The notes: generated by a model from the sequence alone, not told the origin. Numbered from the stretch's first letter, positions 4,570 through 5,274 are shown. The stretch: DNA of 64,000 bases from Escherichia coli O157:H7 (GCF_013167455.1 NZ_CP038328.1); one strand, 5' to 3'. Numbers and translations are program-made.

Positions 4570-4767
4570 ACCATTTATTGGATTAATTCAATATTCTTGC
4601 TGTAGGGGTATAGCCGAGGCCACCAAAGCCCGGAGGTGGTGAAATAAAACCGGGCACAACACGAAGGCGCATTTCCGATATCCATAAAGAGTCGGTCTTG
4701 TCTGTTAAATTTAAATGGTGGGAGTGCGCCTCCGGTTGTAAATAACGACATTGCTGTGTGTAGTCTT

Positions 4768-4811
4768 GGCGGCATCAGTTCTACTCCGTGGCTGCCCTGC
4801 CGCCCCTTTTT
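4768..4811 (+). terminator. candidate intrinsic terminator in the early-left leader
   Basis: GGCGGCA (4768-4774) pairs TGCCGCC (4798-4804), then CCTTTTTAAA. Confidence 0.4.
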
Positions 4812-5085
4812 AAAGTGAATTTTGTGATGCGGTGAATGCGGCTGAGCGCACGCGGCACAGTTAAAAGCATCAGTGTTATGGGTGGATTATCCGGCGTTAA
4901 TTGTTAACTGGTTAACGTCACCTGGAGGCACCAGGCACCGCATCAACAAAGTTCACTTCAGTGATGAAAGGTGAGAGAAAATGTTGGATGTAGCTATTGA
5001 AAACCAGAACGGGTGGAATTATAGTGCACCTGCACCTCATAAAACGGGTGCCGGGATTTGCACCCCGATGATCACTAGAGCGCAT

Positions 5086-5108
5086 AACCGCGCCAAAGCG
5101 GTTTTTTT
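5086..5108 (+). terminator. candidate intrinsic terminator in the early-left leader
   Basis: AACCGC-GCCAAA-GCGGTT followed by T7. Confidence 0.45.
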
Positions 5109-5274
5109 ATGCGTAAAGCGCAGCCACATTCAGATTATGGTGGGGCGTATGGGGCCGTTTTCGGGCGGGCCGGATTCTCTAGTGACCGGTAGTGCAAACC
5201 CTGTACGTCTCACCACCCATGAGATTTGCACCTCCGGTGGTGAGTTTACCAACTTATCACTAGAGGCTGCCATC

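Follow-up and report, generated by a model that had tools for sequence, protein, structure and literature searches.

The locus and its RNA genes

The window analyzed here, a 64,000-nucleotide stretch of the Escherichia coli O157:H7 genome (GCF_013167455.1, NZ_CP038328.1), carries a Rac-like prophage. Its annotated genes are, in order, two HTH regulators, one with DUF1391, and then Rha, kilR, ydaE, recE, recT, ralR, xisR and intR. Our subject is the interval 4570-5274 on the plus strand. It lies directly in front of a Rha-family regulator of 184 aa (5275..5829, +), which is identified by Pfam Phage_pRha, by PHROG 995 together with partial anti-repressor families, and by the annotation, and which has kilR, ydaE, recE and recT downstream. 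RefSeq annotates no RNA genes at the locus. Its Rha CDS (WP_000887681.1) starts at ATG 4981, encodes 282 aa and spans most of the interval. The initial annotation had read the interval as an RNA leader with two terminators and mutually exclusive pairings, either an attenuator or a put/nut-like antitermination RNA, that controls read-through from a promoter at 4208. That presumed early-left promoter has a TTGACA at 4208 flanked by an inverted repeat, AAACACATTTCGTGTT / AAAACGCATTGTGTTT (4194-4233), which looks like an operator pair.

Several other Rfam matches above threshold occur in the window: the RalA antitoxin sRNA opposite ralR (10069-10247, -), FnrS (14557-14674, -), McaS/IsrA (18052-18147, +) and an ALIL pseudoknot, an IS3-type frameshift element (23133-23249, +). 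These matches fit a prophage that occupies the Rac site and borders on chromosomal sequence downstream. An ARAGORN scan of 4000-6000 for tRNA and tmRNA found nothing, and the ...ACCACCCA stem was rejected as a tRNA-like gene on that negative result.

The upstream part of the interval begins with a conserved 150-nt block (4613..4760, +) that contains the hairpin GCCCGG-N16-CCGGGC (4628-4655, +) picked out initially. The block is nearly invariant in 15 distinct Rac-like loci, including the sieB-kilR spacer of K-12 Rac. Two competing hairpins can form within it, CCACC..GGTGG and GCCCGG..CCGGGC. It has no Rfam match, and the fold of 4570-4812 is weak (z = -2.0). The block may belong to a precursor of the DicF-like RNA that follows it, as its 5' part.

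The first terminator-like element of the initial annotation is present as a GC hairpin with a T-run that ends at 4811 (+). This hairpin is a separate DicF-family sRNA with an intrinsic terminator (4755..4811, +), recognized by the terminator scan and by an Rfam scan with RF00039 (4755-4805; 54.7 bits against a gathering score of 48). By comparison, the K-12 Rac copy (L002 3161-3216) scores 39.1 bits, below threshold, and canonical dicF scores 76.4. Like the DicF of the dicB operon in the Qin prophage, the window element exceeds the gathering score of the model, has a terminator hairpin and a loop containing CUACUCCGUG, and lies in the early-left operon of a lambdoid prophage. Unlike Qin DicF, it does not conserve the 5' single-stranded targeting region, where its 14 nt, UGUGUGUAGUCUU, are a poor fit to the consensus UUcugGUGacaUUU. 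The DicF-like hairpin has at least three loop variants in Rac-like prophages, and canonical dicF occurs in many relatives (it was found in loci L014, at 1979-2030, and L047). A structured spacer resembling STnc100 comes next (4795..4964, +), delimited by inverted repeats that form a long-range stem between 4813-4834 and 4936-4958. Its score with RF02076 (41.8 bits) falls below the gathering score of 47, and we do not assign it to the STnc100 family. In homologues the flanks of this spacer are conserved and the center holds variable inserted hairpins.

The 3' part of the interval begins with a putative sigma-70 promoter, TTGAAA-17-TATAGT (4997..5025, +; 10 of 12 consensus matches), that is nearly invariant in 48 distinct homologous upstream sequences. 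The site ends six bases upstream of the 5' end of IsrK, with a start expected at about 5032, and it corresponds in position to PisrK, as mapped in Gifsy-1. The IsrK sRNA, a homologue of P4 seqA, covers 5032..5108 (+) with hairpins 1 and 2 and an intrinsic terminator (Rfam RF01394; 68.6 bits against a gathering score of 50). In hairpin 1, comparison of the window with the Stx2 phage F004, Gifsy-1 and P4 gave 4 compensatory pairs. The terminator (5086-5108, +), a hairpin followed by T7 that the terminator scan also returned, is the second one of the initial annotation. The two terminators thus turn out to be the 3' ends of two sRNA genes, DicF-like and IsrK. Since IsrK has its own promoter-like site, transcripts that start at the 4208 promoter and read through are not necessarily what is controlled. 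IsrK carries two short sites that recur near Rha: b1, GATTTGCAC (5055-5063), in the loop of hairpin 2, and a1, TCACTAGAG (5072-5080), single-stranded in the linker. The Rfam c4-a1b1 model (RF03163) scores 48.1 bits in Gifsy-1 and 44.1 bits in P4; the window was not reported at E <= 1, although both the a1 and b1 sites are present.

Downstream of IsrK, a C4/CI-type antisense RNA occupies 5133..5220 (+), with a 17-bp closing stem and two hairpins. It matches Rfam RF01695 over the full length of the model (1-87 of 87) at 78.1 bits, against a gathering score of 45. The C4 class, represented by P1 c4 and P4 CI, is defined by stable repressor RNAs of about 77 nt released from a longer transcript by RNase P, and the window RNA is a candidate for such processing and function. 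The fold is strongly conserved: across 22 sequences, among them F004 and Gifsy-1, its 27 pairs are 99.3% paired and 13 of them have changed on both sides, compared with 36-46% paired in slid controls and with 0 of 500 shuffles as good. After the stem, the 3' tail is CCCA in the window and CCCU in many variants. The 12-nt loop of the second hairpin contains a', CTCTAGTGA (5177-5185), and b', GTGCAAA (5192-5198), is single-stranded.

The elements noted initially are all present on the plus strand, and the repeats fall within this array. The GATTTGCACC copies lie at 5055-5064 and 5223-5232 (+), the (A)TCACTAGAG copies at 5071/2-5080 and 5256/7-5265 (+), and the complement CTCTAGTGA, able to pair with either flanking copy, between the latter two. 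For TCACTAGAG and its complement, 0.07 occurrences were expected in the 64 kb and three are present, each of them between 5072 and 5265; the two occurrences of GATTTGCAC are unremarkable by count alone (1.2 expected). The initial annotation had missed a second complementary element, GTGCAAA, which pairs with both GATTTGCAC copies. Both a' and b' are therefore complementary to sites upstream (a1 and b1) and downstream (a2 and b2) on the same transcript. In the window the duplexes of a'/b' with the four sites have energies of -13.2, -14.4, -14.9 and -8.6 kcal/mol, the last being the modest b':b2 duplex. The a2 target, ATCACTAGAG (5256..5266, +), forms 10 bp with the a' loop (-14.4 kcal/mol), and this duplex includes the Rha Shine-Dalgarno sequence. 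As had been noted, the downstream copy (5256-5265) overlaps AGAGG (5262-5266), 8 nt upstream of ATG 5275, and the overlap is the same in every variant.

An alternative hairpin (5209..5244, +), seen as an inverted repeat, competes for the 3' strand of the C4 closing stem. Its 9-bp stem joins CTCACCACC (5209-5217) to GGTGGTGAG; the 3' arm is 5236-5244, one base away from the 5237-5245 given initially, and the loop displays b2, the second GATTTGCACC (5223-5232), as proposed. Pairing in this hairpin is 98%, and both bases have changed in 3 of its pairs. Compensatory changes are thus found in both helices, and the mutually exclusive pairings are real and conserved. The 259-nt stretch 5032-5290 is also more stable than shuffled sequence (z = -4.7). 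Its MFE fold keeps IsrK and C4 separate, and its centroid fold pairs a1:a' and b1:b' in cis; the two match the two alternative conformations published for Gifsy-1.

Loop and target types in related loci

How do the complementary sites behave in relatives of this locus? We collected 80 IMG/VR loci (L003-L082) that encode Rha at an identity of at least 79% and reduced their 245-nt upstream regions to 30 distinct sequences. These contain 10 variants of a' and 5 of b' in 15 combinations. Both repeat motifs co-vary across the 30 distinct regions: whichever a' and b' a locus has, its a1 and a2 are complementary to the former and its b1 and b2 to the latter, and the stems and flanks are conserved. 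Pairing is accordingly far stronger with a locus's own partners than with foreign ones, with mean duplex energies of -11.9 vs -4.9 kcal/mol for a':a1, -15.2 vs -6.0 for a':a2, -15.1 vs -6.9 for b':b1 and -10.0 vs -4.4 for b':b2. The a and b types also reassort. CCGTGATGA is found with three b types and CTCTAGTGA with two. Three genomes contributed two loci each (L015/L027, L009/L042 and L062/L063), and in every case the two differ in at least one loop. The loop and target sequences are an address that differs between related prophages and whose parts always change together. With such an a'/b' address code, prophages that share a host could be kept apart in their regulation or could cross-talk.

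The isrK-C4 module is present in 218 phage records. One of these, the record of the Stx2 phage F004, annotates isrK and C4 before a Rha-like gene, kilR and bet-exo, which is the same place as in the window. Between sieB and kilR, K-12 Rac has only a homologue of 4595-4958. The isrK-C4-rha module is not general to Rac, because K-12 Rac lacks it.

Two observations on Rha genes deserve mention alongside these data. Some of them (L024, L026 and L062) are found without C4; here the upstream RNA matches Rfam sRNA-Xcc1 (67.4 bits). This RNA (about 2367-2456 in L024) shows the same logic, with CTTAACTG inside it and CAGTTAAG both upstream and on the Shine-Dalgarno sequence. In addition, the C-terminal 70 residues of Rha (window 5275-5826) weakly match phrog_2379, the PHROG family of Gifsy-1 AnrP (E = 1e-6). 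The N-terminal domains of window Rha and AnrP (L083 2638-3198) differ, and BLAST detected no similarity between the two proteins (E = 0.14). The comparison suggests domain shuffling behind a shared RNA module.

A probable immunity module and competing readings

We conclude, with a probability of about 0.8, that 5032-5275 is an IsrK-C4 RNA immunity module of the kind found in P4, P1 and Gifsy-1, placed in front of Rha in a Rac-like prophage. The conclusion is built on the sequence matches, folds, complementarity and co-variation observed above. An RNA-regulatory region had been correctly recognized in the initial annotation, which assigned it to the wrong class.

Processing, translation block and decoy action are modeled here on the homologous systems. 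The putative promoter at about 4997-5025 would produce the 77-nt IsrK, ending at its own terminator. Transcripts that read through would carry C4, from which a stable species of about 80 nt is probably excised, in the manner of P1 and P4. C4 would expose a' in its hairpin loop and b' in its single-stranded stretch, and both could pair with a2 and b2 just downstream. Since a2 covers the Shine-Dalgarno sequence, Rha would not be translated when C4 is paired, and expression of kilR-recET may also fall, via polarity. IsrK can compete for C4 because it carries the same two sites, b1 and a1; it could do so in cis, within the read-through RNA, or in trans, as the short RNA, and thereby release the block. 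In this way the module would explain how an antirepressor-like gene in a Rac-like prophage is silenced by RNA alone. A published result counts against such a scheme: in Gifsy-1, constitutive STnc1160 did not counteract IsrK (PMC4825925). So do three features of the window, namely the modest b':b2 duplex, the missing c4-a1b1 match at E <= 1 and the reading frame that stays open across the module.

Might the array act on transcription rather than on translation? The cis-acting attenuator or put/nut-like RNA proposed initially would work on polymerase arriving from 4208, and two intrinsic terminators do lie between the early promoter and Rha, with alternative pairings around them. We nevertheless regard this proposal as highly improbable. 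The plus strand has no boxA-like site in 4200-5300, no nut/put-type family is among the Rfam matches, and no N- or Q-type antiterminator gene is annotated in the flanks. The elements instead match families of trans-acting sRNAs with a putative promoter of their own, and their loop and target types reassort like immunity specificities. Termination control of the P4 style is a better candidate, though still an unlikely one as the main output of the module. Here C4, pairing with nascent b1/a1 and b2/a2, would enforce premature termination and so govern read-through into rha-kilR-recET rather than Rha translation; such an activity is compatible with the IsrK-C4 immunity module. The end of a1 lies 5 nt before the IsrK terminator hairpin, the seqA-CI-seqC region of P4 fits the same models in the same order, and in P4 itself, CI is reported to pair with seqA and seqC and thereby to terminate transcription prematurely. 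Yet a2 sits exactly on the Shine-Dalgarno sequence in every variant, which points to translation. In Gifsy-1, moreover, the effect of IsrK on transcription was 8-fold, compared with a 139-fold rise in anrP translation when IsrK was supplied in trans, and over-production of STnc1160 was unlike that of a termination factor (PMC4825925).

The remaining alternatives concern the reading frame. The initial annotation saw no convincing ORF here, and this holds in one respect and fails in another: a frame runs open from ATG 4981 into Rha (4981..5274, +), as in the RefSeq CDS, and it has no codon-position signature. This frame spans the putative promoter, IsrK with its terminator, C4 and b2/a2, and it contains an AUG at 5137 that resembles the start of orf45. 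Of 31 distinct variants, 29 keep it open and in phase with the Rha ATG; it measures 294, 297 or 300 nt, its indels are net multiples of 3, and all 30 distinct stop-trinucleotide sites in the alignment fall in the other two frames. Pfam Phage_ASH (PF10554) matches residues 14-108 of RefSeq Rha (E = 5e-15; window 5020-5304), the PHROG 995 profile includes the N-terminal extension, and the corresponding frame of P4 is open too. One could therefore hold that the stretch is protein-coding, that Rha is a protein of 282 aa with an N-terminal 'Ash' domain, and that the RNA features are secondary. Several lines of evidence make this improbable, if less so than the put/nut proposal. Variable sites are spread evenly over codon positions in the upstream frame (49/50/54), in contrast to the 72/46/129 of Rha proper, which is typical for coding sequence. 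The peptide shows no amino-acid conservation and is replaced wholesale wherever the a/b type changes. The frame encloses a conserved putative promoter and a terminator. Gifsy-1 uses a different frame across the conserved 3' stem of C4, and its short ORF ends where anrP begins. Finally, the same Pfam family matches the old P4 'cI protein' ORF that overlaps CI RNA (L085 8168-8584, minus strand), and the P4 immunity factor is reported to be an RNA. Phage_ASH may be a family built on a translated RNA immunity region. At ATG 5275, by comparison, a conserved Shine-Dalgarno sequence stands in front and the codon-position signature begins. The RefSeq start of Rha is probably 98 codons too far upstream. 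For this genome the annotation is corrected accordingly, with three sRNA genes that the RefSeq record does not contain.

Why, then, is the frame kept open? We conclude that 4981-5274 evolves as RNA, yet stops are selected against. The likely cause, by analogy with the coupling of orf45 and anrP in Gifsy-1, is the transit of ribosomes. More tentatively, and with the odds against it, translation through the RNA array could itself be part of the switch, with RNA immunity acting on untranslated transcripts only. Translation would begin at AUG 4981 when the transcript is an early-left one and at AUG 5137 when it is a read-through one. Moving ribosomes would open up the IsrK terminator and the C4 fold and escape the block at a2, and the product would be an N-terminally extended Rha. 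If this were so, Pfam PF10554 (Ash) would represent a translated RNA immunity region and not a protein domain.

Comparison with known systems

In the lambda nut and HK022 put systems, as in the window, an early leader contains structured RNA ahead of terminators. They differ in that the window has no boxA-like site or sign of cis action on polymerase, and its RNAs belong to other families.

Phage P4 is a much closer relative. The isrK model matches P4 seqA at 60.8 bits and the C4 model matches CI at 74.9 bits; the order and spacing of seqA-CI-seqC, and the complementarity of loop and targets, are the same as in the window. The sequence after the Shine-Dalgarno is also conserved (..EAAIMATTLTPSHPE in P4, ..EAAIMATIPTLSHPDV in the window), and in both cases a frame is open through the RNAs. 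P4, however, is a satellite phage in which the module is the main immunity system and controls the replication (alpha) operon by premature termination. The window module instead belongs to the early-left operon of a lambdoid, Rac-like prophage, which has protein repressors as well; the gene under its control is of the Rha family.

The immI region of P1/P7 (a1 b1 - c4 - a2 b2 - icd - ant) contains an RNA of the same RF01695 family, with the same two-site logic and with a2 on a ribosome-binding site. In P1 the blocked ribosome-binding site is reportedly that of icd, and ant is affected indirectly. In the window, by contrast, the blocked Shine-Dalgarno sequence is Rha's own, and the upstream copy of the targets is a separate terminated sRNA, IsrK. 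The heteroimmunity of P1 and P7 is ascribed to loop differences, and it has a parallel in the 10 x 5 specificity types of the Rha loci.

Gifsy-1 offers a further counterpart. Upstream of anrP, the models match IsrK and the region called orf45/STnc1160, and the likeness to the isrK - orf45/STnc1160 - anrP array extends to IsrK, C4 (STnc1160), the a and b sites, the position of the putative promoter and an AUG where the C4 stem begins (ATGGTGGGGCGTATGGGG). Unlike the window module, the Gifsy-1 module lies in the late region after antQ, and the stop of orf45 overlaps the anrP start (ATGA), whereas the same AUG in the window is fused in frame to Rha. In the Gifsy-1 study (Hershko-Shalev et al. 2016, PMC4825925), transcription from PisrK was shown to continue into anrP, on a long RNA that is translationally silent. 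The pairs G28-C162 and G31-C159, proven by compensatory mutation in that study (PMC4825925), map onto b1:b' in our own mapping. The structural homology of IsrK to P4 seqA was already stated there (PMC4825925), an 'IsrK-C4 immunity system' was described in P4 and lambdoid Salmonella prophages (Barquist et al. 2013), and the Rfam C4 and isrK profiles have been noted in the literature to detect relatives of CI and seqA. An IsrK-C4 module before Rha thus leaves the picture established for P1, P4 and Gifsy-1 unchanged. Only the conserved open frame and the reassorting address code reach a little further than the descriptions we found.
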